This document shows positions 3,707 to 43,643 of a DNA stretch of 64,000 bases, in pieces. The first letter of the stretch is position 1, and every line of letters starts with the position of its first letter. The DNA is from a virus. Below the pieces are notes generated by a model. The model was not told the origin of the DNA, searched no databases, and saw only the letters and a program-made list of their open reading frames with translations. Both the position numbers and the translations under genes were made by a program. The stretch spans positions 20,946 to 84,945 of the IMG/VR virus record IMGVR_UViG_3300020455_000008, one strand, 5' to 3'.

Positions 3707-3709
3707 GAC

Positions 3710-29349: not shown

Positions 29350-29795
29350 TTGATGAACATGGTAATGATTTAGACCCCAAAGCTCGAAGAGGTTGGTGGT
29401 TCAGTGTGGTATTTTTACTTATCATTGTAGGCTTAATACTCTTCCTCACTTACGTCAAAATCGTAGACGAGAATCGTGATGTATTGATCGGCATTTTGGG
29501 TGTCTTAACTGGCTCTATCAGCTCAATGATGGCCATTGCCAGTGGTAGAGATCCAAGTGAAGTAGAAGAGTTGAAAGAGGAGCTGTCAAGAGCTAACGCA
29601 GACAGAGAAGCACTTATAGCCAGGCTAAGAGATTCACAGATCCAGCTTCAGATCAAAAATGAACAGATCGGTGACCTACAGACCGCAGTGATTGATAAGC
29701 TGTCTATGTTTGCGGGGGAGAAAGTCATACGTAAAAAAGCGCCTGAAGAAGTGATACTTGATCCTGACATTGAAGCATGGCTACCCAAGTCGTAA
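29346..29795 (+). CDS. Two-TM membrane protein with C-terminal coiled coil
   Basis: Two hydrophobic helices then a heptad-rich region; TTGA overlap with cyclase stop. Confidence 0.7.
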   Translation: MIDEHGNDLDPKARRGWWFSVVFLLIIVGLILFLTYVKIVDENRDVLIGILGVLTGSISSMMAIASGRDPSEVEELKEELSRANADREALIARLRDSQIQLQIKNEQIGDLQTAVIDKLSMFAGEKVIRKKAPEEVILDPDIEAWLPKS

Positions 29796-29812
29796 AAGTT
29801 TTTGAAAACTAT

Positions 29813-31234
29813 TTATAGTATACCTTTGAACAGTGGTAGGTCTTCTAAGTCTTTCTTCTTGACTTCGACTTCCTCAGCTTGACCACCCCAGTAAGCTATG
29901 CGCTTCTTAGCAATCTCAACGTACTCCTCGTTAAGCTCAATGCCAATCGCATTCACTCCTTCTACAGCGCAAGCGCACAGGGTAGACCCACTGCCTAAAA
30001 ATGGCTCTAAAACAGTGCCATCCTTTGGGCAGACTAAACGCAGGCAGTACTTCATTAAATCAAGTGGCTTGACCGTTGGGTGGTGATTAGCCCTCTTACC
30101 CGATGGCGTTCTAGTTTTCTCTAACGACCCGTCTATACGACCATTTAATGTACCAAAGTTTTTCTTCTCTAAATCTTGTAGTCCAGCTTCTTTCTCTTTC
30201 TTACTTGCTTTCGATGTATAGAAGAACCTACTTGCCCCACCCTTATCTCCGTACCCTTCTGAACCATAAGCCTTCCAGCCTACACCATCCTCGACTGAGG
30301 AGAGCTGCCCCTTGCCAGCTACTCCCCAAGCCCGACTCTTCTTCCCAGCTCTACCACTTTTCTGAATACCGCTTTGTTGATCGACCGCAAGTGCAGCTTC
30401 CTCATCTAGTATAACATTGGCAGGGAAACGACCTTTGGGTTTGTGCATTTGAATTTTACTACCGACTTTTGCTATGTGACCTGTCCACCCACTTTCCTTA
30501 TAAGAAGCAGTTTTCTGTTCATGCATTTGGGTGAAGTCGATATTTTCACTGTTATCATATTGCACTCTAGTATCATCGATATTGATTGCACCTACGCCCC
30601 ACGTCATTACATTGTCTGCAATAGATCCTTCGGGTGGTTTTCTAATCATTATGATGGGTTCATACGCTGGCTTGAGTGCAGTACCCCAACCCTCCCACTT
30701 CTCAGCTTCGGGGCATTTAGCTTGGTACTCTTCGACAGGATTTGACGTTAGTTTGTTTTTCTCTTCTACATCACTAGCTTGATACTGACTCGCAGTGGGG
30801 ATTGCTCTACCCCTATTAGGGTGACCAAACTTCTTATCAATCGCTAATGATACGTTATGACTTTTTGGGAACCCACTGCCGTACAGGTACATCAAAGTAT
30901 CCCTCACCTCGAACCCAGCTAAGCGCAAACTAATACTCATTAGGTCTTGGGTTCTTGAGGAAGCGAATACTAAACCATGCGCTCCAGGCTTTAGGACTCT
31001 GTATACTTCTTTCCACAAACTGGGAGGAGGCACCCAACTATCCCAAGACTTATTCATAAACCCCTTACCCTTGGGTGTCCAAGACTCTCCACTTGTCCAT
31101 GCTCTTAAGCAATCTTCTACATTCTTCGATGAGGTATTCCCCATACCGTAGGGCGGATCAGTGATTAAGCAGTCTAGTGAGTTGTCGTCTAATGTCTTAA
31201 GTATCTCTTCAGAGTCTCCATTTAGTATTTGCAT
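29813..31234 (-). CDS. DNA amino-methyltransferase (N6-A/N4-C, beta class)
   Basis: TDPPY near N-terminus, HPTVKP, EPFLGSGST near C-terminus; start MQILNGDS. Confidence 0.92.
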   Translation of the reverse strand: MQILNGDSEEILKTLDDNSLDCLITDPPYGMGNTSSKNVEDCLRAWTSGESWTPKGKGFMNKSWDSWVPPPSLWKEVYRVLKPGAHGLVFASSRTQDLMSISLRLAGFEVRDTLMYLYGSGFPKSHNVSLAIDKKFGHPNRGRAIPTASQYQASDVEEKNKLTSNPVEEYQAKCPEAEKWEGWGTALKPAYEPIIMIRKPPEGSIADNVMTWGVGAINIDDTRVQYDNSENIDFTQMHEQKTASYKESGWTGHIAKVGSKIQMHKPKGRFPANVILDEEAALAVDQQSGIQKSGRAGKKSRAWGVAGKGQLSSVEDGVGWKAYGSEGYGDKGGASRFFYTSKASKKEKEAGLQDLEKKNFGTLNGRIDGSLEKTRTPSGKRANHHPTVKPLDLMKYCLRLVCPKDGTVLEPFLGSGSTLCACAVEGVNAIGIELNEEYVEIAKKRIAYWGGQAEEVEVKKKDLEDLPLFKGIL

Positions 31235-31265
31235 TGTCTCTCTCAAAAGTTTTTGAAAACTATTT

Positions 31266-31856
31266 TTAGGTGGTGGCCCGCACAAATGAGTAGATCTGCT
31301 CTAGTAGTTTCTCAGACCAATACTCTCTCTCAAGGCCCATGATTTTAGGGGATTGAACTCTAAGTACCTGAACGCCCTTAGACTCCATTAACCCTAGCCA
31401 CGTTTCATACAATTCGTCAAGAGCCACAAACTGAGTATTCGATAAGGGTGAGTGACTAGCCGCACACTCAAAATACACAATGAGCGTTGGGAGCTGTATA
31501 TCATCTGACATAAGATTGTCATAAAACATCTTCAATCGCTGGTAGTCCTCATCACTCATACCAAGTCTCTCTCTATACTCCCACAGCGCAAAGGTCATCG
31601 CTGACCATACAGATCTCTCATAGAATGTAATCGGCACATGAGATCCCCACTGCTCACCTAAATGCCACTGAGAAAAAAGCGCAAGCATATAGCTCTCCCA
31701 CTTCTCTATATCCCAATCTCCATCTAATACACTCTCCTCCTCTCCCCATATCAAACGACTCACACCTAAGTTCTCCAGCTCCCACATAAATGCTCCCACT
31801 CCACTACCCACTATACCCTCAATCGAAATCCTAGAAAAAGCGCGCAAAGAATACAT
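31266..31856 (-). CDS. Second deoxynucleoside-kinase-like protein, degenerate P-loop
   Basis: ISIEGIVGSGVG, YERSVW, PTLIVYF. Confidence 0.65.
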   Translation of the reverse strand: MYSLRAFSRISIEGIVGSGVGAFMWELENLGVSRLIWGEEESVLDGDWDIEKWESYMLALFSQWHLGEQWGSHVPITFYERSVWSAMTFALWEYRERLGMSDEDYQRLKMFYDNLMSDDIQLPTLIVYFECAASHSPLSNTQFVALDELYETWLGLMESKGVQVLRVQSPKIMGLEREYWSEKLLEQIYSFVRATT

Positions 31857-31860
31857 ATGA

Positions 31861-32100
31861 CCCCCTAATAACTAATTATCTATACCCCAGTATACCATAA
31901 GACTAAATATCCCTTACCCTCATACATAAACACACTCATCACATACACTAAACAATAATAACAACACTCTCACTCATACAATCATCATACACTCCTCAAA
32001 TATACAACAATCCCCAACAAAACATACCCCAAACCCCCTACTATACATCATCCCATAGAAAAACCAATCTCCCCATCGTAATATACATAACACCACCACT
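31861..32100. other. C/A-rich, almost G-free non-coding tract
   Basis: 4 G in 240 nt on the + strand (hand count). Confidence 0.9.
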
Positions 32101-32149
32101 TGAGTGTTAGCGCCCTTCGCAAACCTTTGGAATCATTAAGTTTTTCGGA

Positions 32150-32255
32150 GTTGACAAAAGTGTCAACCGATGAGGTGATTTTGGTGAGTTGGAGAGCTTT
32201 AGAAAAGTGAAAATCCTAACATTCAGTAACTCTCGAATATCGAATGTTAGGATTT
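32150..32255. repeat. Two inverted repeats
   Basis: GTTGACA-4-TGTCAAC (32150-32167); AAATCCTAACATTC-17-GAATGTTAGGATTT (32211-32255). Confidence 0.75.
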
Positions 32256-32465
32256 CAAAAGTATTTTATGGCTCATCACCCAGCAAAACAGGTGCGAAAT
32301 TGCCCCTAAACAGCAAAATGCTACTTATAAGTACCCATAAAACCATGATTCACCTAAAATAGGTGTATTTAAAAAACAGTGACTCTCACGACATCGAGTC
32401 TCCACTTTTACGGGGGGTAAATACAAGAAAAAATAGGGGGTTGTAGGTGTTTGTCCTACGTTACC

Positions 32466-32702
32466 CTAAGCAGTGATCTTCCAGTGCGCTTCGCCTTCCT
32501 CATCGTAGCTGCGAGTGATTGAGTAATACTGCTCATCCTCATAGTACTCGACAATAAAAGTCTCAGTGTGTTTGCGCTCTATGACTCTAACGAGTCTCCA
32601 ATTAGGAAATGGATCAGACAGGTATGCTGCTAGAAAGCTTTCTAGCGCCTGTGTCTCTTCATAGTCTATCGTATACCGAGTGGTCACTAGTGTATCTCCC
32701 AT
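32466..32702 (-). CDS. Hypothetical early-type protein
   Basis: Part of leftward coupled cluster. Confidence 0.6.
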   Translation of the reverse strand: MGDTLVTTRYTIDYEETQALESFLAAYLSDPFPNWRLVRVIERKHTETFIVEYYEDEQYYSITRSYDEEGEAHWKITA

Positions 32703-33271
32703 GACTTTGGGATGAGAGGGTACAATCTCTCTACGGCTTCAGGGAATGTCATACCCCAGCTCCACTGAGAGGGTGCGATCTCAACGGCCCATCCATCTGA
32801 GTACCCTTGACTTACAGGCTCATCTATATCCATGCCATCGATGAGATCTTGAAGCTCATCTTCTGTAGTGTACCTTATGTGCTGAGTAGGTAGACATTCA
32901 TCCTCTCCGACTACCAGTATCTCTTCGAATGTGATGATGGGGGTAAAGGGGAAGCCGCTTGCATAGAACTGAGATCTAATTGCTTGGTATACTGCATGAG
33001 CGATAGCGGTTTCTCTATCATGCCCGATTCCAACGTAGTGAGCGCCATCAGGGGTATGGGTATATACGCCAAACCCTCTCATAGCTTCTATGAACTCTAG
33101 GCCACACTCATCCATCTCCTCTTGGGAGAGGGGGCGGTCATATATAAATATGTAATGAGGGGGGAGGGCGTTGTCTTCGACAACGTGATATGTCCAAAGC
33201 TTCTCTAGCTCATCGCTGACCGCCATATTATCGATTAGCTTTAGGAACTGAGGGTGTATATTAAAGGTCAT
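32687..33271 (-). CDS. Hypothetical acidic protein
   Basis: Coupled ORF. Confidence 0.65.
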   Translation of the reverse strand: MTFNIHPQFLKLIDNMAVSDELEKLWTYHVVEDNALPPHYIFIYDRPLSQEEMDECGLEFIEAMRGFGVYTHTPDGAHYVGIGHDRETAIAHAVYQAIRSQFYASGFPFTPIITFEEILVVGEDECLPTQHIRYTTEDELQDLIDGMDIDEPVSQGYSDGWAVEIAPSQWSWGMTFPEAVERLYPLIPKSWEIH

Positions 33272-33540
33272 TACTTATTCTCCAGGTATGAGGGCTTCGG
33301 CATGAAGAGCCAAAAGGGAAAGGGTTGTGGTATCTCAAGTTTAGTCCAAGTGGAATGGGCTTCAGTAGGGGTCATTTGTTCTACAAGTGCGAGGAGGTGT
33401 CTCCACAACTGGTGAGCGACAAGGTATGCGAGGTATGACTCCTCATTATCCTCTACATCTGAGTAGCAAGTATTGAGTTGCGCCCATAGGTTGTCATTAG
33501 TGAGGTCTTCTACAAGTTCGTTTATTGTCATGTTATCCAT
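33271..33540 (-). CDS. Hypothetical protein
   Basis: Coupled ORF. Confidence 0.6.
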   Translation of the reverse strand: MDNMTINELVEDLTNDNLWAQLNTCYSDVEDNEESYLAYLVAHQLWRHLLALVEQMTPTEAHSTWTKLEIPQPFPFWLFMPKPSYLENK

Positions 33541-33541
33541 T

Positions 33542-34018
33542 TTAGAATCTCCAGTTAGGATATTTGATAGGGTGAGTTGGGTTTAGTTCTGTGATGAGCT
33601 TCATCATGCGCTCAGTGGTGTCTATTGAGTCAATGCCGCAGATGAAGCACTCGATCATCTCTCTGCGTACACTCTCCTTCCATCCCTTCTGTAGAAGGAT
33701 CTCTGACCAAGTGGCTCTTATGCCCTGCTCTGTTAGAGCGTATAATGTTTGTGCCACTCTCTTGAAAGTAATTGCTCTACCGAACTCTCCACTCTCTGAG
33801 TAGAGTTTGTTGAGCGCCCAAAAGTGTCCAGCGACTGAGTGCTGGGATTCTAGTGTCCACTGACCGAACACTGAGGTGTTAGCCTGAACAGATCCACACT
33901 CAACTCTGTTACCAAGGAGGAGCGTAGTTCTGAAAGCTTCTCCCCATGTTATGTTGGGGTATGCTTTGCGGAGCTGGTGAGCGAAGCGATTGGTGTTAGC
34001 TGTAATGTGCTTTCTCAT
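33542..34018 (-). CDS. Hypothetical protein, possible PolX N-terminal (HHH_8)-like domain
   Basis: GEFGRAITFKRVAQTL...KGW..SV..EM.E pattern. Confidence 0.55.
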   Translation of the reverse strand: MRKHITANTNRFAHQLRKAYPNITWGEAFRTTLLLGNRVECGSVQANTSVFGQWTLESQHSVAGHFWALNKLYSESGEFGRAITFKRVAQTLYALTEQGIRATWSEILLQKGWKESVRREMIECFICGIDSIDTTERMMKLITELNPTHPIKYPNWRF

Positions 34019-34055
34019 TTTCTTGTCTCTTTCTGTGAGCCTTAACTACTTCTAT

Positions 34056-34089
34056 ACAATAACCTACCTATTAATAGTTTTCAATAACT
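34056..34089 (-). promoter_or_regulatory. Leftward promoter with overlapping palindrome variant
   Basis: Minus strand AGTTATTGAAAACT; TTGAAA-17-TATTGT. Confidence 0.5.
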
Positions 34090-34099
34090 ATTTTCACAT

Positions 34100-35080
34100 T
34101 CTGCAAAAAAAATACCACACCCCTTCGATGGTCGATGGGCGGGTAGTTGGGTAAGGTCAACCACTGGGTAGTGATGAGCCAACACTAAAAAAAGACCACC
34201 CCAGGGTAGAGGAGGTCATTACATATAAGACAGATGTTCAGTACTCAGATGAGCGCAGAGTAGTTTACCCATTTTCAAAATACCACCCATCCTTCCACCT
34301 ACCTTTGGTAGAACAACCTCGATGAGGGGGTGAGGTTGCGTTATACGCTCATTTCTCTACCCCCGTTAATAGCCCTTGGATCTGTGGTCGGCTTAGACGA
34401 GCGCACAGGGCTAAATACGAACCCCACCAAAATCCACACTAGGGGTAAGGGTCACTCATCGGTATACACAAGAGGGTACTGGGTAAGCGCCAAGTGGTGA
34501 GCAGCCATCACCCAAAAAATCCCATAGGGAAGGCCACCCCCTCCTCACCCTTCTAGGGATATGGATGAGAGGGGCTAAGGCCCAAAGGGCTAGAGAGGTG
34601 ATTAGACGTTTCAAAGGCTTCCATATCTACTACTAACATAACTAGTTAAGCTCTCATAGATGAGAGCGGGTTAATAATATATAACAGATGAGTCACCTCT
34701 CCACCCCCATAGAAACACAACCCTCTATGGGGCGCAACAGGAAACATACATACGTATGATGAGTATACAGGGGGGAGGGTGTGATGAGCGCCGCCAAGGG
34801 TAAGGGCTAAAGGCAACCACTCACCTCAGCCCATAGGAGGTGTATACCGTATATACACTAAAGGCAATAAGGCGCATAAAGGTGATGAGTGGATAACTCA
34901 TCTACATACCAGTATCCCTCTATACACAGAGTGGATGAGCGCCCCGAAAAATTTTACTAAGGGATTTAGCAATAAACGGTACTAAGGGATAAACTCTAAG
35001 AATTCATAAGGGATGAGTCTATTTATCATAAGTCGTCAAGCCCCGAAAAATTTTGGAAGAGCTTTTTGCAATAAACAATT
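34100..35080. other. Non-coding GATGAG-rich region with degenerate repeats
   Basis: 13 GATGAG/CTCATC in ~850 nt; GCCCCGAAAAATTTT..GCAATAAAC twice, 100 nt apart. Confidence 0.7.
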
Positions 35081-35122
35081 ACGTGCGCGCGCCCGCGCCC
35101 GCCCGCGCCCGCCCAGGCGCGC
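35081..35122. other. GC-only island
   Basis: CGTGCGCGCGCCCGCGCCCGCCCGCGCCCGCCCAGGCGCGCG in an AT-rich genome. Confidence 0.85.
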
Positions 35123-35220
35123 GTAGCAGCAGCCTTGGATGCCGTCATAGCGGGCTTTTTTGACGACACACCAGCAGCCCTAAAATAGCTTCGATGTCGT
35201 GAGAGTCGACGTTTGCGCAC

Positions 35221-35416
35221 CAGTACTGAAAGGTCGTTCAGTACTGAACAAAATACCATGTAAGACAAGAGACTACAAAGGGCCTGTATTACCTACTGAA
35301 CAAGTAATCATGTAGTCTAGTCTCTCACCTTGTGACTATATAATTGATCTAAAAAGGGCCTGATCAAATTACTGTGTACTTGTTCAGTGTATCCACTTGT
35401 TCACACTACTGAACAA
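35221..35416. promoter_or_regulatory. Cluster of ACTGAACA / TGTTCAGT motifs (operator-like)
   Basis: Palindrome GTTCAGTACTGAAC 35236-35249; inverted pair 35295/35377; copy at 35408. Confidence 0.6.
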
Positions 35417-35523
35417 AGAAACAGTAAAATATGGCATTTACTTCTGGAATTTCGTTATGTACCTTATGTTTATCAAGTTCACTGTGAGCTTGTCTAATAC
35501 ATTCATCCTTAAGGGGATAACAC

Positions 35524-35643
35524 ATGATAAAAGATCTTAAATACTCTCTCTCTCACTTTGGACTAGTTCCCACACTAGTTTTTGTCTCGCTTTATGCGCT
35601 TGTTCTCTTTTCATGGGCCTATGGCCTTTACACTAGCCTTTAA
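35524..35643 (+). CDS. 39-aa membrane peptide (not in ORF track)
   Basis: MIKDLKYSLSHFGLVPTLVFVSLYALVLFSWAYGLYTSL; AAGGGG RBS; its stop forms the next RBS. Confidence 0.55.
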   Translation: MIKDLKYSLSHFGLVPTLVFVSLYALVLFSWAYGLYTSL

Positions 35644-35653
35644 GGAGGCGATT

Positions 35654-35944
35654 ATGATAACAAGTAAAGGAAAACAACGGTTAAAGCGTCACAATGAAAA
35701 GAGCGCTTTTAAGCGCTCTACGTGGGTATCGTCTTCTCACTCTGTCAACTTAGAGCGAGGTAAAAAGTATCTAGTTAAAGCAGGGTATAAACTAGGAACT
35801 GCTAACGATGGGTATTTCACTGATCAAGTAAAATTCGATGATGGCGAGACTATCATTTTATATACGTCTGTAGACGCATATAAAGCCTTATTTAAAGCAA
35901 ATATTGTCGCTTGGGAATTACAAGGCTACAATTATGATTATTGA
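35654..35944 (+). CDS. Hypothetical early-type protein
   Basis: TAAGGAGG RBS before ATG 35654. Confidence 0.65.
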   Translation: MITSKGKQRLKRHNEKSAFKRSTWVSSSHSVNLERGKKYLVKAGYKLGTANDGYFTDQVKFDDGETIILYTSVDAYKALFKANIVAWELQGYNYDY

Positions 35945-36659
35945 ACAATTGCGTGTCTTCGGAAACCTTGCGTTATTTGCACAAGCAAACAGGTTTAATA
36001 ATAATCTTTCTAATCAGAAGATGAAAGCCGATCAATACAGCCTTGAAGGAGATTTCATTCAATATACTATTCTACCTCTTGAGCTTGTTAAATTAGGACA
36101 AATGAAGGGAAAAGGAATTACTCAATATGCACAAGATATAGCCTGCGCTTTAAGTTGTGAATTTACAGTCAGAAATGGGGGTGGCTGCTATGTCAACAAT
36201 GAAATAAGAACAGCAATCAAAAGTGCGCATAAGGTACTTAATAGTCGTTCACTCAGTTTTAAAGCGTATAATCCTAAAATTCGCTTGACTGTTTGGGGTG
36301 ATGTTGGGCGCTTAAACGCAGAGGGTAAAGCCTACATTTTAAACCTTGCTCAAAATGCTGATAGACTAAGTTATACAGCTGATTTTCAAAAAGAAAGCAT
36401 GCAAAAATTCAAGGGCTTTTTCTTGGCGAGTGTGCAGTCAATACCTCGGCTCTTAACCGCTCAGTCGTTAGGATGGAAATCCTACATTGCAGATAGTGCG
36501 ACTTATGAATTTGTAAAGGTTCAAGGAATTGAAAATTTATATAAATGTCCTCAAAACAACAAGGGAGACGCGGTGAGATTCGGTTGTTCAACTTGTAAAA
36601 TCGCGTGTAATGGCTTGCGATCTGTTGTCGCTTATAGCGTACACAGTCAAGCGTTATGA
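35904..36659 (+). CDS. Cys-rich phage protein (gp88-like, possible Fe-S/radical-SAM-related)
   Basis: CALSC..GGGCYV, IRLTVWGD, SYT, ASV, CP..CSTCKIAC. Confidence 0.55.
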   Translation: MSLGNYKATIMIIEQLRVFGNLALFAQANRFNNNLSNQKMKADQYSLEGDFIQYTILPLELVKLGQMKGKGITQYAQDIACALSCEFTVRNGGGCYVNNEIRTAIKSAHKVLNSRSLSFKAYNPKIRLTVWGDVGRLNAEGKAYILNLAQNADRLSYTADFQKESMQKFKGFFLASVQSIPRLLTAQSLGWKSYIADSATYEFVKVQGIENLYKCPQNNKGDAVRFGCSTCKIACNGLRSVVAYSVHSQAL

Positions 36660-36739
36660 GTACGCTTGAGATCGTCTTTACAATCGGTTTACTAATCACA
36701 GACTATAGACTCTTTTTATTATACCTAATACTTAGGTAA
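36656..36739 (+). CDS. 27-aa hydrophobic peptide (not in ORF track)
   Basis: ATGA overlap; MSTLEIVFTIGLLITDYRLFLLYLILR. Confidence 0.35.
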   Translation: MSTLEIVFTIGLLITDYRLFLLYLILR

Positions 36740-36796
36740 ACACTTAAAAACACTACACAAGGGCCTCGGCTGGAGGCTCCCCTTTAAGGAGGTAAC

Positions 36797-37159
36797 ATGA
36801 ACACACTTTCGAGTAAAGCAATGAAGCGAGATCAAGACGAACTAAAACGAACTTTCGGAGGTGCTTTGAAGGGCCTTTATGAACTTGATTTTGATATGTA
36901 TACTCAAGATGTGGAATTGTTGATTTGGCTATTTGAGCAAGAGAACGCAGAGGAATTATATATTATCGAGTGTTTAACAAGCTTTGATATGTATGATGAG
37001 TATATAGCCGAATTACCCGAGGGCTATGAGGGAACAACCTCATACCCTAGATTGTCTATTCTTTGTTATTTGGGGAGGGTAATGACTAACGATCTAAGAA
37101 GAATGTTACTAAACGAACACTTTGCAGATATTAACAAGCGTAAAGCTATAAACAACTAA
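36797..37159 (+). CDS. Hypothetical acidic protein
   Basis: TAAGGAGGT RBS. Confidence 0.7.
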   Translation: MNTLSSKAMKRDQDELKRTFGGALKGLYELDFDMYTQDVELLIWLFEQENAEELYIIECLTSFDMYDEYIAELPEGYEGTTSYPRLSILCYLGRVMTNDLRRMLLNEHFADINKRKAINN

Positions 37160-37196
37160 ACAACTAAACAACTAAACAAGGGCCCAAGGGCCCAAG
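37149..37196 (+). repeat. Short tandem repeats (TAAACAAC)x3+ and (CAAGGGCC)x2
   Basis: Directly visible. Confidence 0.8.
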
Positions 37197-37208
37197 AAAG
37201 AATTCATT

Positions 37209-37559
37209 ATGTTTATCTCAGCAAAACAACTTCAAAACATCATCGAAACAAACAAGCAGCAAGCGCAGCATATACAATATTTGACTACTCAAGTAGAAGC
37301 GCTTCAACACACAGTTAAAGAGCTAACAGAAGTTAGAAAGCTTCTTACTGATGACGAGGTTGAGGCATTAACTGAACAACTCGTAAATAATGATGAATTT
37401 CAATACTCTTTGAGTGAATGGATTAATATATATCTCGGTGATAATATTGATGATTATGTCAGTAGTTACATTGATAATCATCACTACATAATCACTGATC
37501 TAGTAGACGATAAAATAAACGAGATCTTTGAGGAGGTAACTATCAAAATAGAGAGATAA
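37209..37559 (+). CDS. Coiled-coil protein with acidic C-terminus
   Basis: Last gene before terminator. Confidence 0.7.
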   Translation: MFISAKQLQNIIETNKQQAQHIQYLTTQVEALQHTVKELTEVRKLLTDDEVEALTEQLVNNDEFQYSLSEWINIYLGDNIDDYVSSYIDNHHYIITDLVDDKINEIFEEVTIKIER

Positions 37560-37588
37560 CAAGCAAAACAAAGAAACGACCTTTCAGG

Positions 37589-37624
37589 CCCTTGCTAGTC
37601 TCCACACTAGCAAGGGTTTTTTTT
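37589..37624 (+). terminator. Rho-independent terminator
   Basis: CCCTTGCTAGT-6-ACTAGCAAGGG followed by a T run. Confidence 0.9.
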
Positions 37625-37664
37625 GTCTTTTTGAATACCAACCCCCACCAACCCACAAAAACCG

Positions 37665-37752
37665 TATTTTGCGTTTTAAGCCACGTTAAAACACTGGTCT
37701 ATATCAATACAGTGGTTAGGTGGCTATCTTTCGTCTTACGTTAAAATATGAG
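37665..37752. repeat. ~88-bp fixed-spacing intergenic element, copy 2
   Basis: Matches 28102-28189 at both ends and at centre. Confidence 0.65.
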
Positions 37753-37896
37753 CTAATTTAACTATGTTCATTCTTTGGTTTGAGTCGGGCCTGTATGCTG
37801 CTAGCGATTAGAGAGAAGTTGACCCGTCAAACCAACTGAACAACTGTTCAGTTGCCCCAAGACACCCATCCCCCATACCTGCGCAAGCAACTTTTA

Positions 37897-38027
37897 CACT
37901 AATGTAAATTGAGTTGGGTTATGTCCACTATGCACTAATGTAAACTGAGATGAGTTATGTCCAACCATTATGCACTAATGTAAATTGAGAGGGTTTATGT
38001 CCAACCATTATGCACTAGGGTAAATTG
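37897..38027 (+). repeat. Iteron-like tandem repeat, ~40-bp unit, ~3.4 copies
   Basis: CACTAATGTAAATTGAG..GTTATGTCCAACCATTATG starting at 37897, 37933, 37973, 38013. Confidence 0.85.
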
Positions 38028-38111
38028 TGTTTGTATGATTGGGTATTGTGGGTTTGTGTGTATATATGTTTTATTAGTTGTGAGAATAGACAAGAGAGAG
38101 AGAGATAAGAT

Positions 38112-38987
38112 ATGATGACATTAAGAAGGGGAGACAAGGGTAGTTTTGTATTGTTTCTGCAAGAGCGATTGAATTTTCATGGTTTTTACACGAGTCAGGG
38201 TGGAGAGTTTAATGTGGGAACGGAGCGTACGTTAAAGGAGTTCCAGGTGTTATGGAATTTGGAGGTGAATGGTATATGTGGGGATGTGGAGTGGGGTTGT
38301 TTGTTGCAGAATTTTGGTTGGAGTCGTGGTGGTCATTTTGAGCGTAAGCGATTACCTGAGTTATTATTGGAGCGAGTGGAGAAGGAGGGGGATGTGAGTG
38401 TGGAGTGTATGGGTGTATTGGGGGAGATGTTAGGATATTTGGGATGTGAGGAGCGTCCATTTGGTCGTAATCGTGGTAAGGAGGTATTGGAGTTGGTGCA
38501 GGGAACGTGTGTAACGGGTGAGCGTAGGTTATTGGGTAGTGAGTACAAGCGTCATTGTGGTTTTAGTAATCTGAAGTATTTCCCATTATGGAGTGTGATT
38601 GGATTGAGTACGATCTTTGCGAAGTATTTTGAGGCGGATGATTGGAGTGAAGCGCCATTTGGTGATTGGTTGGGAACAGTAGACCAGTTATTGATATGGG
38701 GGGAGGGGCATGGTGTGTTGCGTGTTGGAGATTTGGGGTATTTGCGTCCAGGGGAGATCTTTGTGATAGGGATGGTGGATGTGGATTATAGTGTGCGTGG
38801 TTATGATGGGGGTGCACGTCCGAGGGGTGGTCATTGTGGTTTAGTGTTATGGGATTGTGGAGATGGTACAGTGCAGACGGTGGAGTGTAATACAGCGAAT
38901 GGTGTACGAGTGAGGAGGAGAAAGAAGTCTCAGTTGTATGGTGTGATCAATTGGGAGGGTGCATTGGAGGGGTTGGGATATGAGTGA
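38112..38987 (+). CDS. PG-binding + CHAP-like cell-wall hydrolase, catalytic Cys apparently replaced
   Basis: LRRGDKG..V..LQ..L; GHCGLV; VECNT; PLWSV where PWC is expected. Confidence 0.65.
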   Translation: MMTLRRGDKGSFVLFLQERLNFHGFYTSQGGEFNVGTERTLKEFQVLWNLEVNGICGDVEWGCLLQNFGWSRGGHFERKRLPELLLERVEKEGDVSVECMGVLGEMLGYLGCEERPFGRNRGKEVLELVQGTCVTGERRLLGSEYKRHCGFSNLKYFPLWSVIGLSTIFAKYFEADDWSEAPFGDWLGTVDQLLIWGEGHGVLRVGDLGYLRPGEIFVIGMVDVDYSVRGYDGGARPRGGHCGLVLWDCGDGTVQTVECNTANGVRVRRRKKSQLYGVINWEGALEGLGYE

Positions 38988-39345
38988 TTATATATATGAT
39001 CGTGAGTTATGTAGGGAGCGAGCGATTTGTTTGAAGTTGGGTGGTTTAACGATACGGGAGGTGATGTCCGTTTTAGCGGATGAGGGTTATATGAATAGAG
39101 ATACGGGTCGTGGTTATGGTTATGAGAGGGTGAGAGTATGGTGCAAGGGTATCTGTGACCAGCGTGGTTACCGTCATGTGCATTTACGTGGTATGAGTAT
39201 AGAGGAGCGTAAGTTACATGATGAGCGTCAGCATGAGATCCGATTGCAGCGTGTACGTGATTGGCGTGAGCGCAATATGGATCGAGTAAGGGAGTATGAC
39301 CGCTGGTACTATGAGAATTTTAGGCGTGTGTTTCGCAATTCTTAG
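38980..39345 (+). CDS. Putative DNA-binding protein
   Basis: HTH-like GLTIREV..LADEGY; R/E-rich C-terminus. Confidence 0.5.
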   Translation: MSDYIYDRELCRERAICLKLGGLTIREVMSVLADEGYMNRDTGRGYGYERVRVWCKGICDQRGYRHVHLRGMSIEERKLHDERQHEIRLQRVRDWRERNMDRVREYDRWYYENFRRVFRNS

Positions 39346-39379
39346 TACTTATTGAAAAGTATGAATAGGGGTGTGTGTA

Positions 39380-39730
39380 TTAGTTATATTTGAGTTCTTT
39401 AAATACGGCCAGTTGGAAGAGAACGTCAGCGACTTCTGCGTCTTCATCATTGTGGATGATGAGTTGCAGGTATGTGGGGTATTCTTTAGCCATGATATGT
39501 AGTGCTTGGTGTAGATCCTGTAGTGTGATGATATGTATTTTGTTGTCTTCTATTTCGTGAATGATGAGTGACCAGTCTTTATTGAGTTCGAGTAGGTTTT
39601 GTTCTTTTGGTATTTTGGTAGTGGCCCAGTATGAGATACCAGCTTCGATGGCAGTTTCTAGGACTTCAGCGATTCTGTAGTTGGGTATGGTGTATTGTAT
39701 ATGAACGGTGCATGATGTGTGTGTTGTCAT
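39380..39730 (-). CDS. Hypothetical phage protein
   Basis: EAGISYWA...DAEVADVLFQLAVFKE motif. Confidence 0.7.
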   Translation of the reverse strand: MTTHTSCTVHIQYTIPNYRIAEVLETAIEAGISYWATTKIPKEQNLLELNKDWSLIIHEIEDNKIHIITLQDLHQALHIMAKEYPTYLQLIIHNDEDAEVADVLFQLAVFKELKYN

Positions 39731-40029
39731 TAGTGTATGCCTTTAAGTATTTGGATATAGTCTTGTTGTGTTTGTGTGTGTATTTGTTTGATTTGTTTGA
39801 GTACGGACTGTTTTTTATTGAGATGTAGGGTAGTGGGTAGTTTATGTTTAACTCTTTGGGCGCGCCATCGGTAGATATTGCTATCTAGGACGAAGAGGGC
39901 GAGTTGGTGTAGGTATGTTCGGTTGCTAGCGTGTGTATACTCTTGTGAGAAGGTGTGCCATAGATCTCGATCTTCGTGTGTCGTGTATTGTAAGAGTTCT
40001 TGGTAGTATTGTGTTTGTGTGTGTGTCAT
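39730..40029 (-). CDS. Hypothetical protein
   Basis: Coupled ORF, T/H/Q-biased. Confidence 0.55.
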   Translation of the reverse strand: MTHTQTQYYQELLQYTTHEDRDLWHTFSQEYTHASNRTYLHQLALFVLDSNIYRWRAQRVKHKLPTTLHLNKKQSVLKQIKQIHTQTQQDYIQILKGIH

Positions 40030-40054
40030 GTTGTATATCCGTTAATAATGTCTT

Positions 40055-40408
40055 TTAGAGATACTGTAAGAGTTTAGCTCCGATTTCATGTGGGATGAGA
40101 TCACAGGGCATAACGGTCATTGTTTCTTTGTGTGAGTGTGCTAGGTCATCGAGCCAACAGTTGTCTTCGATATACAGGGCACGATCGACAAAGAGGTGAA
40201 CATCTACGCTGGTAAAGGATGTGGGGTAGAAGAAGAAGCTAATCTCTGTTCTTTCGTCATCTTTGTATGCAGTGATTCTGAGAGCTGGATCACTTGAGTC
40301 TCCTTGGATCTCAGTATTGATTTTTCCTGTGTAGTGTTGATTGAGGTATTCTACAACTTCTTGTAGGAAGAGGTATTGCCCACTTTTCATATGATCTAGT
40401 AAGTTCAT
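40055..40408 (-). CDS. Hypothetical protein
   Basis: Coupled ORF. Confidence 0.6.
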   Translation of the reverse strand: MNLLDHMKSGQYLFLQEVVEYLNQHYTGKINTEIQGDSSDPALRITAYKDDERTEISFFFYPTSFTSVDVHLFVDRALYIEDNCWLDDLAHSHKETMTVMPCDLIPHEIGAKLLQYL

Positions 40409-40728
40409 TGTGCTTCATCCTTATTTGGGAAGTCGAAGCAGAGTGTAGACTTCGTGGGTGTATGTGTCATGGTGGTTGCCCCGTAGGGGTGGTTAGCGAG
40501 TCCAGAGATAGTTATGCCAGCCACAGTGGAGTTATATTTTGAGTTCCTTCTGCATTTGATTTCGATGGTAGTATCGTTGACTTCAGATATTTTGACTTTC
40601 ATTGCATTGGCGAGTGGTGTGATTGCTTCGACTAGGTGACCTTTAACGATAGTGGGATAGATCTCGTTAGGTGTTAAGCCTTGATCGATTAACTCATGTG
40701 CAGTGTGTAATAGGTGAGCGTATGACAT
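40405..40728 (-). CDS. Hypothetical protein
   Basis: AAGGAG RBS. Confidence 0.65.
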   Translation of the reverse strand: MSYAHLLHTAHELIDQGLTPNEIYPTIVKGHLVEAITPLANAMKVKISEVNDTTIEIKCRRNSKYNSTVAGITISGLANHPYGATTMTHTPTKSTLCFDFPNKDEAQ

Positions 40729-40778
40729 TGTGTTCTCCTTAGAGAGTGTTTAGTAAAAAAGCACTAAGCTTGATACAA

Positions 40779-40807
40779 GATATACCCCACTATTTAAGGT
40801 AGGTCAA
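40779..40807 (-). promoter_or_regulatory. Sigma70-like promoter
   Basis: TTGACC-17-TATATC on the minus strand. Confidence 0.5.
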
Positions 40808-40837
40808 TAGGGAAAAATAAAAATATTTTATATTGGC

Positions 40838-41329
40838 TTAATCCTGTTCCATTTCTTCAAAGCATTTCTCTTGGTTGAAGTATAAAATATCTGTGTATAT
40901 ATCGATGATATGTTGTGCATAGTTGTACTCTGATCGACCTTGTTTGCATTTCCCTTTAAGCCCTCTGTTGTACTGGGCAAGTGCTTTGCATTTCTTTTGG
41001 TTATTAAGGTCTAGGAATTTCTTGAGTGCCGTTATCCCTGCTTTAGTATAGTTGCACTCACCTTCTTTTGGGCAGTGGTATTGAGGTAGAACACCTAATG
41101 GGCCTTTTGCGCCTTTATGGCTTGTGATATTCTCGAATCGAGTCTCATCATATGCGACTGAGATGGCGAGTATGGGGTCTACCTTTTGTTTGATGGCTTC
41201 CTTAGCAACTTCTTGGCAGATTGCCATTCGTTTTGGGATAGTCTTAGAGATTTTCTTTTGGTAGCTGATCGAAGCATTAGGTGACATGATATTCATCATA
41301 ATGATCCAGCATAGGTTTGTTACGTTCAT
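40838..41329 (-). CDS. Lytic transglycosylase (SLT domain)
   Basis: VDPILAISVAYDETRF, SHKGAKGPLGV, ALAQYNRG. Confidence 0.8.
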   Translation of the reverse strand: MNVTNLCWIIMMNIMSPNASISYQKKISKTIPKRMAICQEVAKEAIKQKVDPILAISVAYDETRFENITSHKGAKGPLGVLPQYHCPKEGECNYTKAGITALKKFLDLNNQKKCKALAQYNRGLKGKCKQGRSEYNYAQHIIDIYTDILYFNQEKCFEEMEQD

Positions 41330-41718
41330 TGTGCTTCCTTTATTGTGACCTCAGTCCTTGGTTGGTTACTACGCTCTGCATAGTATTTGTATGCGTGAAT
41401 GGTGCATACCTGAGCGTCATCTTTGAGTGTTTTATTAAGTGCGTCTAGTACGGCCTTGATGATATTGTCAAGGTCGGGTCTTTTAGTATGTTTGATGAGT
41501 CCATCGGGGTATTTCTTAGGCATAAGTCTTTGTGGTCTTGGGAAGACAGCAAGTAATGTGACTTCTATAGGGCCTTGTATGTCTTGTTCTTTAATGAGTG
41601 CCTTGAGTGCGTTTTCGTAGTCCTTTGTTCTTTTGGGTGTGTATGCTCTACCGTTACCGAATCTTGGTCTGCCTTTGGGTACAGGGGTGCCCATTAAGGT
41701 GATGGTAATAGGGTTCAT
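41326..41718 (-). CDS. rusA: RusA-like Holliday junction resolvase
   Basis: PVPKGRPR, KRPDLDNIIKAVLDAL, DDAQV. Confidence 0.9.
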   Translation of the reverse strand: MNPITITLMGTPVPKGRPRFGNGRAYTPKRTKDYENALKALIKEQDIQGPIEVTLLAVFPRPQRLMPKKYPDGLIKHTKRPDLDNIIKAVLDALNKTLKDDAQVCTIHAYKYYAERSNQPRTEVTIKEAQ

Positions 41719-41936
41719 TCATTTTCCCACTTACGTACACCCCAGTATTGTCCACCATTGGCTCTATCATCATCTAGGTAAACGATGGAATATCCGTTAG
41801 TGTTGAGGTAGGCGGTTGCAGCGTGGAAACAGTCAAAGTGTGCAAGTTGGTCTTTGTTTTCAGTATCGGGGTTATAAAGGGTAACCCATGTATATGGTCG
41901 GTCGGGTCTTGTGTCTTCAATAACTATTTCTTTCAT
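41715..41936 (-). CDS. Hypothetical protein
   Basis: Coupled ORF. Confidence 0.6.
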   Translation of the reverse strand: MKEIVIEDTRPDRPYTWVTLYNPDTENKDQLAHFDCFHAATAYLNTNGYSIVYLDDDRANGGQYWGVRKWENE

Positions 41937-42121
41937 AGTTTGACTCGCTTTCTGACCATGTATAACTTTTGCTGTGGACCACCTTTTTTGATCATAATTT
42001 GTTTATTTGTTTTGGAGAACTGGGTGCCGTAGCCACGTTCGAGCCAAAGTTGGATTTCTTTTTTAGCTTCCATGTAGTTGGGGGTAATCAAAATGATCTC
42101 CCAAGGGTTTGACTTTTTCAT
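41933..42121 (-). CDS. Hypothetical protein
   Basis: AAGGA RBS, coupled. Confidence 0.55.
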   Translation of the reverse strand: MKKSNPWEIILITPNYMEAKKEIQLWLERGYGTQFSKTNKQIMIKKGGPQQKLYMVRKRVKL

Positions 42122-42257
42122 TTTTTTCCTTTCTGTGTGCGTACACTTATGGAAATGTCTATAGCACTCATGTTGAATCTCTTCAAGATTTATTTCAACA
42201 TACCAACGTGTGGGTTATAATATGTTAGATACTCACTAATACTTTTGGAGGTACGTA

Positions 42258-42518
42258 ATGAACGTCAATATGGACATGGTTTTTAAGGTGATGAGCGTAG
42301 GTTTGATTCCAGCTATGTTATGGGTCAACTCGCAGTCTGTAGATATTGCTTTGTTGAAGCGAGAGCTTGAGTCGAACAAGACTCGATTAGACAAGGTAGA
42401 AGCGCAACAATCTAAGATTTTACAGGGAGTCACAGATAATCAAATTGCTCTTAAAAGCATGACAGTGACTATGAACTTTATGAAAGATATTTTAACGGAT
42501 ATTAAAAATGCTAGGTAA
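42258..42518 (+). CDS. Single-TM coiled-coil protein (holin/spanin-like candidate)
   Basis: GGAGG RBS; N-terminal hydrophobic helix. Confidence 0.6.
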   Translation: MNVNMDMVFKVMSVGLIPAMLWVNSQSVDIALLKRELESNKTRLDKVEAQQSKILQGVTDNQIALKSMTVTMNFMKDILTDIKNAR

Positions 42519-42837
42519 CTTTTGGCGAGGTGTGGCATTGGTTGTTTTTTGGGTATTATGTGCTTTTGTGTATCAGTCTTTGTTACATACAGACGATTAC
42601 CAAAAGTCAGCCGCTAGTACAATGGATACCGCCCCTATGAAATCTGCTAAACGTGTTGTAAGGCGTAAGCGTAAGTTAAAGCGTAAACGTAAAACTAAGA
42701 AGCCGTATTTACTTGAAGTTAGAGTAAGGGACGCTAACCCTGTTGACATTCATCAAATGGAACAACAGTTAAATCAGATGAGTATAGATGTGATTGACCT
42801 AAAGGTTAGTCAGGGGATTCCCAATGGATATAAATGA
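42508..42837 (+). CDS. Membrane-anchored basic protein
   Basis: N-terminal TM, K/R run. Confidence 0.6.
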   Translation: MLGNFWRGVALVVFWVLCAFVYQSLLHTDDYQKSAASTMDTAPMKSAKRVVRRKRKLKRKRKTKKPYLLEVRVRDANPVDIHQMEQQLNQMSIDVIDLKVSQGIPNGYK

Positions 42838-43150
42838 GTATCAAAATAAAGCAAGAGAGACCGCCTTGTACCCTACAGAGCATGGGCTTACCTACTGTAC
42901 TTTAGGTTTAGCGGGTGAAGCGGGTGAAGTTGCGGATAAGATTAAGAAGATTATTCGTGATAAGAACTGTGTGGTGAGTGAAGAAGACCGCATGGAACTA
43001 GCAAAAGAATTAGGTGATGTATTTTGGTATTTAGCAAATCTCTCCTTTGAGCTAAACTTAGCTCTCGATTTTGTGGCTAATAAGAATATCGAGAAGCTAA
43101 TGAGCCGCAAAGAACGTGGTGTAATTTCGGGTGAAGGAGATAATAGATAA
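42824..43150 (+). CDS. MazG-like nucleotide pyrophosphohydrolase
   Basis: LGLAGEAGEVADKIKK, KELGDVFWY, GEGDNR. Confidence 0.9.
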   Translation: MDINEYQNKARETALYPTEHGLTYCTLGLAGEAGEVADKIKKIIRDKNCVVSEEDRMELAKELGDVFWYLANLSFELNLALDFVANKNIEKLMSRKERGVISGEGDNR

Positions 43151-43317
43151 TGCCAGTGTATAAAGTAAAAGGTGGGTATCGTTGGGGTAAGACAGGGAAG
43201 GTTTACAAAACCAAAGCCGAAGCAGAACGTCAGGGTCGCGCTGTGAGGACTTCTATGTCTTATAAGGGTTCTAGTAAGGGGAAAAAGGGTAAAGGCACTA
43301 AGAAGGGGAAATACTGA
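43150..43317 (+). CDS. 55-aa basic protein (not in ORF track)
   Basis: MPVYKVKGGYRWGKTGKVYKTKAEAERQGRA...; start and stop overlap both neighbours. Confidence 0.75.
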   Translation: MPVYKVKGGYRWGKTGKVYKTKAEAERQGRAVRTSMSYKGSSKGKKGKGTKKGKY

Positions 43318-43643
43318 TGTATGTAGAAAAGAAAAGGGCGGATGGAATAAAGGTAACTCATGCGGGTGGTGAAATTGCAATCACAGACAAAGAGTTAGAT
43401 CTTAGTGTTGCATTGCCTTCAATGGGTAAGCCCTTTTCAGAAGACCAACTAAAGGCAATTGAGGATCGTTTAGAGAGTCACGATGACTTTGTGAAGCCTA
43501 TGATGGCTGTGACTAGAGTTGACGGGGTTTTTGCTAGGTTAGACTTGGGCGGCTACTTCTCTCCTTGGGTTGTTGGAGAAGAGCTTGAGGATGTCATGGA
43601 GCAGTTAGATGACATTTATGGAGTCTATGATGACTACTTATGA
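43317..43643 (+). CDS. Hypothetical protein
   Basis: Coupled ORF. Confidence 0.65.
   Translation: MYVEKKRADGIKVTHAGGEIAITDKELDLSVALPSMGKPFSEDQLKAIEDRLESHDDFVKPMMAVTRVDGVFARLDLGGYFSPWVVGEELEDVMEQLDDIYGVYDDYL

Follow-up and report, generated by a model that had tools for sequence, protein, structure and literature searches.

What could keep one strand of a phage genome almost free of cytosine from two fixed points outward, whatever the direction of the genes? This question is raised by IMG/VR record IMGVR_UViG_3300020455_000008 from an uncultured marine myophage. The stretch analysed, referred to as the window, comprises 64,000 nucleotides (nt), positions 20946-84945 of the 84,945-bp record, and coordinates below are those of the window. 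At 32100 (leftward, minus strand) and at 38017 (rightward, plus strand), the strand running outward in the 5'→3' direction switches within ~20 nt to a G/T-rich, nearly C-free composition. The reading favoured here, with a probability of roughly 0.38, is that the two tracts mark outward-firing strand-displacement or replication starts at a conserved promoter- or iteron-like element.

The plus strand contains 4 G in 240 nt at 31861-32100 and 1 C in 90 nt at 38021-38110; these counts had been given in a first-pass annotation made from the sequence alone, and a recount reproduced them exactly. Further to the right, C accounts for 113 of 1329 nt (8.5%) at 38017-39345, where there are 493 G (37%), and for 74 of 650 nt at 39380-40029. 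Under the composition of the genome, the binomial probabilities are 4e-22 for 31861-32100, 2.7e-7 for 38021-38110 and 5e-24 for the third region. Within the window, 100-nt segments with at most 4 G were confined to 31686-32105, and those with at most 4 C to 38006-38465, 38949-39049 and 39741-39853. A limit of 5 per 100 nt, applied to the whole 84,945-bp genome, added just three isolated 100-nt segments, and in a 300-nt scan of the genome an absolute GC skew of at least 0.5 was confined to the two tract regions. Thus, the chance recurrence of similar tracts, which had been named at first pass as a possible objection, was not found: no comparable tract occurs elsewhere in the genome.

Both biases set in abruptly, as had been described. 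In 250-nt bins, the step at 38020 takes the skew from -0.05 to +0.68, and that at 32100, as seen on the minus strand, from -0.04 to +0.89. On both sides the G/T-rich strand is the one that runs 5'→3' away from the centre, and the polarity is of the origin type, not of the terminus type. The total skew declines outward from the edges, and to this extent the outward fading reported earlier was correct; synonymous sites on the right, however, stay biased to 42121 and do not fade by 40030, so that the apparent fading of the right tract is mostly an effect of coding constraint. The mirror symmetry that had been seen in the region does not extend to the lengths of the tracts, which are ~0.6 kb on the left and 4.1 kb on the right. 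Each tract opens with a leader:

31857..32100, minus strand: left C-free untranslated leader, with G 84, T 102, A 53 and C 5 of 244 nt on the minus strand; G4-G5 runs; 63% A+T
38020..38111, plus strand: right C-free leader, with 1 C in 92 nt; 69% A+T

Both leaders constitute an A+T-rich, easily unwound element that is conserved in composition and not in sequence.

Fourfold and twofold degenerate sites were used to separate a mutation-like signal from coding constraint, and gave the following frequencies:

Baseline plus-strand genes (n = 876 and 1048): fourfold A.28-.31, C.11-.14, G.12-.14, T.41-.49; twofold C/(C+T).38-.40, G/(A+G).44-.47
Plus-strand genes of the right tract: fourfold C.03, G.34; twofold C/(C+T).10, G/(A+G).80
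Eight minus-strand genes at 39380-42121, sense strand: fourfold G.03-.05, C.28-.35; twofold C/(C+T).62-.67, G/(A+G).12-.26

The sense strand of the minus-strand genes mirrors that of the plus-strand genes, i.e. both groups carry the same bias of the plus strand. In the first gene of the right tract (38112-38987), C is found at 0 of 114 fourfold sites, and in all eight minus-strand genes the plus-strand frequency of C at such sites is 0-0.09. Over the right block and in both gene orientations, plus-strand fourfold frequencies range over.00-.09 for C and.17-.45 for G, as compared with.11-.14 and.12-.14, respectively, in the baseline. C→T and A→G are each favoured ~5-8-fold over baseline on the plus strand, regardless of gene direction, and the enrichment of G is ~2.4-fold beyond that expected from mere avoidance of C. 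The leaders and the fourfold sites share one unconstrained composition (G ~.35, T ~.38, A ~.25, C ~.02), as a mutational equilibrium predicts. The earlier statement that the bias is not codon usage is thus confirmed at fourfold sites, and a pure codon-usage effect was dropped since both gene orientations are affected. Queuosine-dependent choice among NAY codons was also dropped, all codon families being biased.

The right bias holds to 42121, and baseline values return in the plus-strand genes from 42258. The left tract consists of the 244-nt leader and about the first third of gene 31266-31856, in which fourfold C rises from.04 in the first third to.13 in the second and.23 in the last. The major capsid gene, which is highly expressed and lies on the plus strand, is unbiased (fourfold C.10, G.03). 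As this gene is unbiased, eight genes of opposite orientation are biased and the left bias ends inside an operon, ordinary transcription is not the cause. The minus operon at 32687-34018 was considered as a further part of the tract and rejected; its sense-strand fourfold sites are G-poor, but its twofold sites are not.

Relatives were collected as terminase-anchored loci, three larger records and metagenome loci found with a profile of the tract hydrolase (see below), and are denoted by G and L numbers. The right step is present in each of 13 loci, namely in three of three (G001, L009, L002) and in ten of ten metagenome loci, some of which are near-duplicates and two of which had mis-set starts, and the left step is present in two of two (G002, G001). 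The leaders of the relatives are unalignable yet nearly C-free (~2 C in ~290 nt in G002, counted by eye; G001L is alike). A block independent of gene orientation and ending at the homologous divergent promoter was found in G001, L002, L030 and L033, with the same trend in L005. In L016, the bias passes the homologous end point and continues through plus-strand genes into the terminase and portal genes, and the L009/L039 group has its block in a somewhat different position. The tracts thus vary in length but keep a fixed, conserved start. The concern voiced at first pass that relatives might lack the symmetry proved unfounded in so far as they keep the tract architecture. In the more distant G005 (terminase 51% identical), |0.5| is exceeded in a single 300-nt window, which makes the feature specific to this clade. 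Horizontal transfer of a skewed module was rejected, as the bias is kept across relatives at 39-50% protein identity.

The edges are marked by the following elements:

32101..32125, minus strand: left start element GCGCTA(G)ACAC(Y), with C-free sequence immediately downstream; seen in the window, G002 and G001L
37831..38031, plus strand: right start region, with the operator-like palindrome CAACTGAACAACTGTTCAGTTG, CCCCAAG, GCAAGCAACTTTTACACT and four ~40-bp units (..CACTA(A/G)(T/G)GTAAATTGAG..GGTTATGTCCA)
32150-32169: palindrome GTTGACA-AAAG-TGTCAAC near the left edge
32211-32255: hairpin with a 14-bp stem (arms 32211-32224/32242-32255, 14 nt, 100% complementary), followed by a T-rich run on the minus strand
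37586-37629, plus strand: strong intrinsic terminator closing the central plus operon

The right-edge consensus of nine relatives reads GTTCA-N2-4-CCCCAAG, 20-30 nt, GCAAnnAAC(C/T)TTTACACT, 20-23 nt, TTATGTCC, and is followed by C-free sequence. The hairpins in 32150-32255 and the 40-bp repeats at 37897-38027 (3.4 copies), which had been described as structures marking the edges, were both verified. The unit from CACT to TTATGTCC occurs here in 4 copies at 36-40-bp spacing, in 4 copies in L002 and in at least 6 in L031, and is single in G001R, L009, L033, L034 and L038. The two starts have T(T/A)(T/G)ACAC in common, which looks like a -35 hexamer. There is no good sigma-70 -35/-10 pair at standard spacing at the starts (TTTACA to TTATGT is 20-23 bp), and a scan with the sigma-70 consensus showed no enrichment (25 sites as compared with 26.1 expected); hence the element is called promoter- or iteron-like. 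A degenerate form of the right-edge pattern was found at five loci in viral contigs, of which three are relatives and two (L024 and L027) are chance matches in a coding region without skew. The right-edge motif is thus not by itself diagnostic of a tract.

Both starts are located just outside the terminator of one of the central operons. On the left, hairpin 32211-32255 is the likely terminator of the minus operon 34018..32466; a hairpin is located at the same place in G002 and a weaker one in G001L. On the right, the half-site ACTGAAC of the palindrome preceding the start recurs at 35226-35430. Sequencing runs X1-X4 were consulted as assembled (Logan) contigs, in which uncovered stretches carry no meaning. 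A 273-nt low-depth X1/X2 contig matches just the 42-nt hairpin of 32211-32255 (4 differences) and has unrelated flanks, and the hairpin element therefore occurs in a second genomic context of the same sample.

If the tracts are outward-firing starts, new synthesis would begin at 32100 (leftward) and at 38017 (rightward), and the displaced parental strand, being of the same sense as the new one, would be the plus strand on the right and the minus strand on the left. Should this strand remain single-stranded unusually long before its complement is made, the faster deamination of C and A in single-stranded DNA would lead over evolution to loss of C (to T) and of A (to G), and the displaced strand would turn G/T-rich where constraint permits, i.e. 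in the leaders, at synonymous sites and, partly, in proteins. Two outward starts around a repeat-rich control region would jointly give bidirectional replication. The start elements may serve as origins, either promoter-primed (like ColE1 or T4 oriF) or bound as iterons by a DnaD-like initiator, and the near-absence of C would also starve a DnaG-type primase of start sites and thereby lengthen exposure. We infer single-strandedness as the cause. The phage encodes a replication set of its own, comprising a DnaD-like initiator (1627-2484), a DnaC-like loader, DnaB helicase, a DnaG-type primase and PolA, which was counted as support for replication starts.

The first-pass annotation had proposed divergent origins or long-lived single-stranded or R-loop zones. 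The polarity, the independence of gene orientation, the two transitions, the similarity of the unconstrained composition to that of the mitochondrial heavy strand, the start at a conserved element and the conservation of all these features in relatives agree with that proposal; no optimisation of the tracts for RNA:DNA hybrids was evident from nearest-neighbour energies. By rules of the R-loop-forming sequence (RLFS) type, all 4 plus-strand motifs with a G-rich extension zone, of 35 initiation motifs, lie at 38280-38708.

Several observations weigh against the reading as replication starts. Nearest-neighbour energies, computed with the Sugimoto and SantaLucia parameters, gave no special hybrid advantage for the leaders or for the part occupied by minus-strand genes, and the R-loop-primed version is thereby weakened. 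The synonymous-site bias is roughly flat inside the right block, orthologues at 1.3-4 kb from the start being similar, and in five genomes (the window, G001R, L002, L030 and L033) it ends abruptly at the divergent promoter, with no smooth decay; a flat block with an abrupt end needs saturation and a fixed priming site for the complementary strand as added assumptions. Inside the right block, the 109-nt intergenic stretch 40729-40837 has a normal content of C (14/109). Substitutions polarised between the window and L030 with L031/L032 as outgroups (46 changes, tiny counts) showed no clear excess of C→T or A→G; C→T was found at 1 of 65 sites and T→C at 3 of 322. The initiator gene lies ~36 kb off, and many phages have their origin inside or beside the initiator gene. 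A phage strand may not stay single-stranded long enough to reach an equilibrium like that of mitochondrial DNA (mtDNA).

A more specific version, rather unlikely as a whole, is mitochondria-like replication with a fixed heavy-strand-type start at 38017, a shorter twin at 32100 and one strand displaced across a defined block. Exposure would then last until a light-strand-type priming site is reached, here at 42122-42257 and further out in L016. Loss of C would leave fewer primase sites and so prolong exposure in a runaway manner, and the resulting hypermutation zone at a fixed address might speed the evolution of the lysis and accessory genes within it. The genes concerned and their surroundings are:

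31266..31856, minus strand: dNK-like P-loop protein, 196 amino acids (aa); first gene of the left tract, overlapping the methyltransferase gene
29813-31285, minus strand: N6/N4 DNA methyltransferase gene, downstream in the left operon; baseline composition
38112..39345, plus strand: two genes of the right tract, for a PG_binding_1 + CHAP-family cell-wall hydrolase homologue (291 aa) and an Arg-rich protein (121-128 aa)
39380..42121, minus strand: eight genes, including lytic-transglycosylase-like 40838-41329 and RusA-like 41326-41718, names that come from reading the translations and not from a family search
42122..42257: divergent intergenic region in which the bias ends, with a TATAAT promoter of the plus operon leading into the terminase gene

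Both plus-strand genes of the right tract are preceded by a Shine-Dalgarno-like sequence. That the bias distorts proteins, as claimed at first pass, was borne out by the hydrolase family, in which Ala, Pro and Thr together make up 7.2-12.3% of 10 clade proteins, as compared with a mean of 19.2% (12.8-22.8%) in 21 full-length outgroup homologues chosen by length and a single-stretch match. Ala is at 0.39-fold and Pro at 0.42-fold of the outgroup level. With the 291-aa protein itself, tblastn against phages and plasmids gave no match, and a scan of viral contigs gave no relatives. The PWC(A) motif of the outgroup homologues and of two clade members, which presumably holds the nucleophilic Cys of CHAP, has Ser instead (..PLWSV..) in the window and in L005, and the His motif GH(C)G is retained. 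As judged by this replacement, the 291-aa homologue may be altered or inactive. A second gene for an amidase with a PG-binding domain is located at 170-1099. In the left operon, contigs of X1/X2 include a form lacking 1427 nt (joint 29818→31246), roughly the entire N6/N4 methyltransferase gene, and at 29795 and 31269-31273 the contigs branch into alternative flanks. Apparently, co-occurring strains differ by the presence or absence of this gene.

The interval between the starts, 5.9 kb in length, is organised as follows:

32374..32397 and 35191-35214: left and right arms of an inverted repeat (24 nt, 88% complementary); the left arm recurs in G002 and G001L
32466..34018, minus strand: central minus operon of 4 genes, with a preference for C-ending codons and without the tract signature
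34019..35080: non-coding field of ~1 kb with GATGAG(C) motifs and hairpin units; two GCCCCGAAAAATTTT...TTGCAATAAAC copies at 34941-34977 and 35040-35076
35081..35122: GC-only island, 39/42 G+C, with a period-10 repeat
35524..37559, plus strand: central plus operon of baseline composition, with ACTGAACA operator-like palindromes upstream (35226-35430) and intrinsic terminator 37586-37629 downstream

The GATGAG field is kept in L002 and tandemly repeated in relatives. Its unit consists of an A-run, a C-rich arm, a loop, a G-rich arm and (G)ATGAGC(C); in relatives such units follow one another in tandem with periods of 46-75 nt, as seen at L031 1-200, L033 1-110, L034 1-260 and L023 9800-10000. 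On the minus strand, the unit resembles a GC-rich hairpin followed by a T-run, and the field may represent arrayed intrinsic terminators or protein-binding sites. The minus strand of the GC island carries one of just two canonical G4 motifs in the genome. In L002, the twin repeats are kept and a GC-rich palindromic island, less extreme, occupies the same place. The near-coincidence of the island with the midpoint of the two edges, to which attention had been drawn, is real in the window (23-64 nt from the midpoint), but it is arithmetic on one genome, and the distances are only roughly equal in relatives.

The 241-aa gene of the central plus operon (35934-36659) is on the opposite strand in G001 (L022) and in L002 (3196-3936), and nucleotide homology with L030, a strain 93-96% identical, starts only at 37842. 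This makes the right half of the centre a module that can be swapped or inverted and whose end coincides exactly with the right start region. No usable match came from PDB sequence searches with the 241-aa and 158-aa central proteins. In L002, a long tandem array at 1880-2000 and beyond is built of ~20-nt units containing GTACTGAAC, the operator-like half-site of 35226-35430 and 37831-37853.

The main rival, which we consider unlikely, is selection through the termination factor Rho, which would act on RNA. Outward RNAs would be C-poor and G-rich where they are free of ribosomes (90-300-nt leaders and 2.7 kb antisense to the minus operon), so that Rho cannot load and transcription reaches the late genes, and the inward RNAs, which are G-free, C/A-rich and unstructured, would be Rho loading sites that stop read-in to the control region. 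The inward RNAs are nearly unfolded, with a minimum free energy per 150 nt of 0 to -2.5 kcal/mol on the left and -1.8 to -13.5 on the right as compared with means of -27 to -31, and contain 35-37% C and 2-8.5% G. They alone have the character of a rut region, for which a C-rich, G-poor stretch of untranslated RNA without structure and of at least 70-80 nt is required, the outward RNAs being the opposite. Depletion of C and enrichment of G are both expected from such selection, and no intrinsic terminator is predicted between the convergent operons. Moreover, here (at 42258) and in 4 relatives the bias stops at the point from which plus-sense genes are again translated, and on the left it decays once translation begins. 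However, the translated plus-strand genes 38112-39345 are the most biased of all, the first with its 0/114 C, and their proteins are distorted, though ribosome-protected RNA should need no such change; in L016, too, translated plus-strand genes are biased, terminase and portal included. For the termination of antisense RNA, Rho normally needs no particular composition, the plus-sense read-through transcript is assumed, and the enrichment of T is unneeded.

Mutagenesis coupled to transcription or R-loops at two very strong regulated promoters, in which the exposed non-template strand is deaminated and replication has no role, has in its favour the location of the tracts: both start at promoter-like elements, with an operator-like palindrome on the right and an upstream terminator on both sides, and R-loops are favoured by the long untranslated leaders with G4-G7 runs and by the RLFS-type matches at 38280-38708. 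This mechanism is distinctly unlikely, as the bias runs at full strength through eight oppositely transcribed genes, the left bias ends in the first gene though the operon goes on through the methyltransferase gene, and the most expressed genes, such as that of the capsid, are unbiased. Furthermore, the skew is a keto (G+T) and not a purine skew, and the leaders have no hybrid-stability advantage. Counter-defence, i.e. selection that strips C from one strand or its RNA, so that the DNA or RNA exposed first would escape a cytosine-directed host deaminase, C-specific nuclease or toxin, appears improbable. Avoidance of C is near-absolute at unconstrained positions; of 268 differences between close strains, 68 are G↔T and 42 A↔T, as if G, T and A were freely exchanged and C alone excluded; the tract genes are accessory (methyltransferase, wall hydrolase); and with G and C on opposite strands nearly all palindromic restriction sites containing G/C would be abolished as a second effect. 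These points have to be set against the ~2.4-fold excess of G over a simple C-avoidance prediction, the C-rich mRNAs of the minus operon in the same block, the bias of ordinary genes such as RusA and the lack of a known target system. As for genome ends, the notion of a linear genome joined at the GC island had been put forward at first pass, and the assembled contigs give it no support. Several relatives' contigs (G001, G002, L031, L033 and L034) do end in the central non-coding field, inside the tandem hairpin and GATGAGC repeats, but repeats of this kind commonly break assemblies, and the island is crossed without differences, or with only two elsewhere, by contigs of X1/X2 (7103 nt, 30076-37178), X3 (34653-37178) and X4 (34457-35176), as well as by the L002 contig. 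These contigs also dispose of the suspicion of a chimeric assembly junction. Over 29500-43500, per-contig k-mer depth in two samples is ~1.5-2 times higher at the centre than in the flanks (18.1 versus 11.1 and 11.8 in X1; ~6-7 versus 2-4 in X3). In X3 it changes near 32.2 and 37.9 kb, and in X1 at 30.1 kb, not 32.1 kb; in X1, depth is confounded by the co-occurring variant 29818→31246. Local over-replication, terminal redundancy or a mixture of strains may underlie the difference. Resection in the 5'→3' direction at a DNA end, or an unfinished lagging strand there, would expose the opposite strand, and with a T7-type terminal-repeat duplication the tracts would point inward; these geometries were rejected by this reasoning, and the central 5.9 kb as a terminal repeat was rejected on the X1 step at 30.1 kb, with the same confounding of depth. 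It is thus very improbable that the tract edges or the island are genome ends, terminal-repeat boundaries, or packaging or staged-injection signals. For an assembly or sequencing artefact, nothing more than the odd composition could be adduced, and its probability is practically nil: X1/X2 contigs without differences span 30076-37178 and 37150-43500, X3 and X4 bridge, and intact homologous reading frames with the same bias are found in at least 13 independent metagenome contigs.

The remaining gene content is that of a tailed phage with a contractile tail. The ends of the record overlap by ~70 bp, which indicates a circular assembly. The large terminase gene (44572-46281) is followed by portal, major capsid, tail sheath and tape-measure genes and then by baseplate and fibre genes, the large open reading frames encoding tail proteins. 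In addition to the replication set, there are genes for a second helicase, RecA, a ParB-like protein and ThyX, and the class II ribonucleotide reductase gene (17835-20843) carries an intein with a LAGLIDADG domain. In L016, the terminase match at 3061-5868 is split by ~1.1 kb within one open frame, which suggests an intein or other insertion. The 460-aa protein encoded at 16484-17866 matches the phage queuine tRNA-ribosyltransferase (DpdA-like) family (E 1.7e-19) and no Pfam family; as the genome has no match to the QueC Pfam family, this hints at a 7-deazaguanine DNA modification relying on host precursors. No CMP/dCMP deaminase Pfam family was found in the genome either, and no DNA deaminase or RNA polymerase, the polymerase search having been made without a working control; a search for the T7-type RNA polymerase family gave no match, but it is uninformative since the control matched no genome. 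There are no tRNA genes in the 64-kb window and no Rfam matches at E ≤ 1 over 31000-40500. Megablast of 31000-41000 against cultured phages gave no match, and the best terminase match among them is Bacillus phage BCD7 at 40% identity. Relatives are common in marine metagenomes.

The replication origins and modes of most uncultured phages are beyond the reach of homology. If the tracts are scars of strand displacement, they would mark start sites, direction and length of the displaced zone from sequence alone, and the mitochondrial mutational regime would be able to act locally in a virus, strongly enough to rewrite proteins. If the selection acts through Rho, the phage would programme termination and read-through by base composition alone over kilobases, at a cost in protein composition. 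Under both readings, a phage clade represented in many marine metagenomes has conserved the feature. A limited full-text search of the phage literature yielded no description of kilobase-long, start-anchored keto-skew tracts, and the first 14 kb of the record of Streptomyces phage BRock carry no repeat annotation.

Among known systems, the reading as replication starts may be compared with vertebrate mtDNA, the displaced heavy strand of which is G/T-rich; A and C both deaminate, at a rate described as >100-fold higher in single-stranded DNA (PMC3269012). The phage tracts have in common with it a C-poor, G/T-rich strand, presumed to be the displaced one, changes C→T and A→G, codons and proteins distorted in genes of either orientation, and a fixed start, the mtDNA fourfold frequencies in this comparison being general background values. 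Unlike the genome-wide asymmetry of mtDNA, that of the phage is local (0.6 and 4.1 kb of 85 kb) and forms two outward tracts.

The RNA-primed unidirectional origin of ColE1 leaves a strand-specific mutation footprint, which starts at the RNA/DNA switch and decays across 1.3 kb or more, as revealed with an engineered error-prone polymerase (PMC3167613), and strand-specific single-strand exposure has been linked to Pol I-dependent origins (PMC7736820). The phage, which has its own PolA, shares with ColE1 an anchored start, here at a promoter-like element, a single direction and a strand-specific footprint. To our knowledge, no natural compositional scar has been described in ColE1 plasmids. In contrast to ColE1, a C-free phage RNA cannot form G-C stems and hence no RNA II-like structure, and there is no hybrid-stability advantage. 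The T4 origins oriF and oriG combine a regulated promoter with a downstream A+T-rich unwinding element, which is not conserved in sequence, and expose the non-template strand (PMC3016281). Similarly, a promoter-like element in the phage lies just upstream of an A+T-rich leader (63-69% A+T) conserved only in composition. Minimal T4 origins, unlike the phage tracts, are ~100 bp long and in the available text of that source no extreme skew is reported for them (PMC3016281), and a MotA-type box is absent from the phage starts.

The inward RNAs, for their part, resemble the rut sites of Rho-dependent terminators such as lambda tR1 in being C-rich, G-poor and unstructured over hundreds of nt. Rho loads at C-rich, G-poor RNA, recognised as bubbles of C > G (PMC9160355). 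Unlike rut sites, the phage tracts are kilobases long, contain translated genes and distort proteins.

Lastly, an excess of G on the leading strand has been described (PMC3269012), and at bidirectional origins of bacteria and some large phages the skew changes sign across the centre in the same sense as it does here. Unlike the usual replichore skew, the phage skew is restricted to the origin-proximal kilobases and is ~5-10 times stronger, and the 5.9 kb between the starts lack this bias. The pattern G/T-rich through C→T and A→G in any gene orientation, by which the mtDNA type is defined, was found in the phage tracts. Compositional asymmetry from replication or strand displacement is thus the known kind to which they would belong, and what is new here is that it is local, extreme and anchored at a fixed start.

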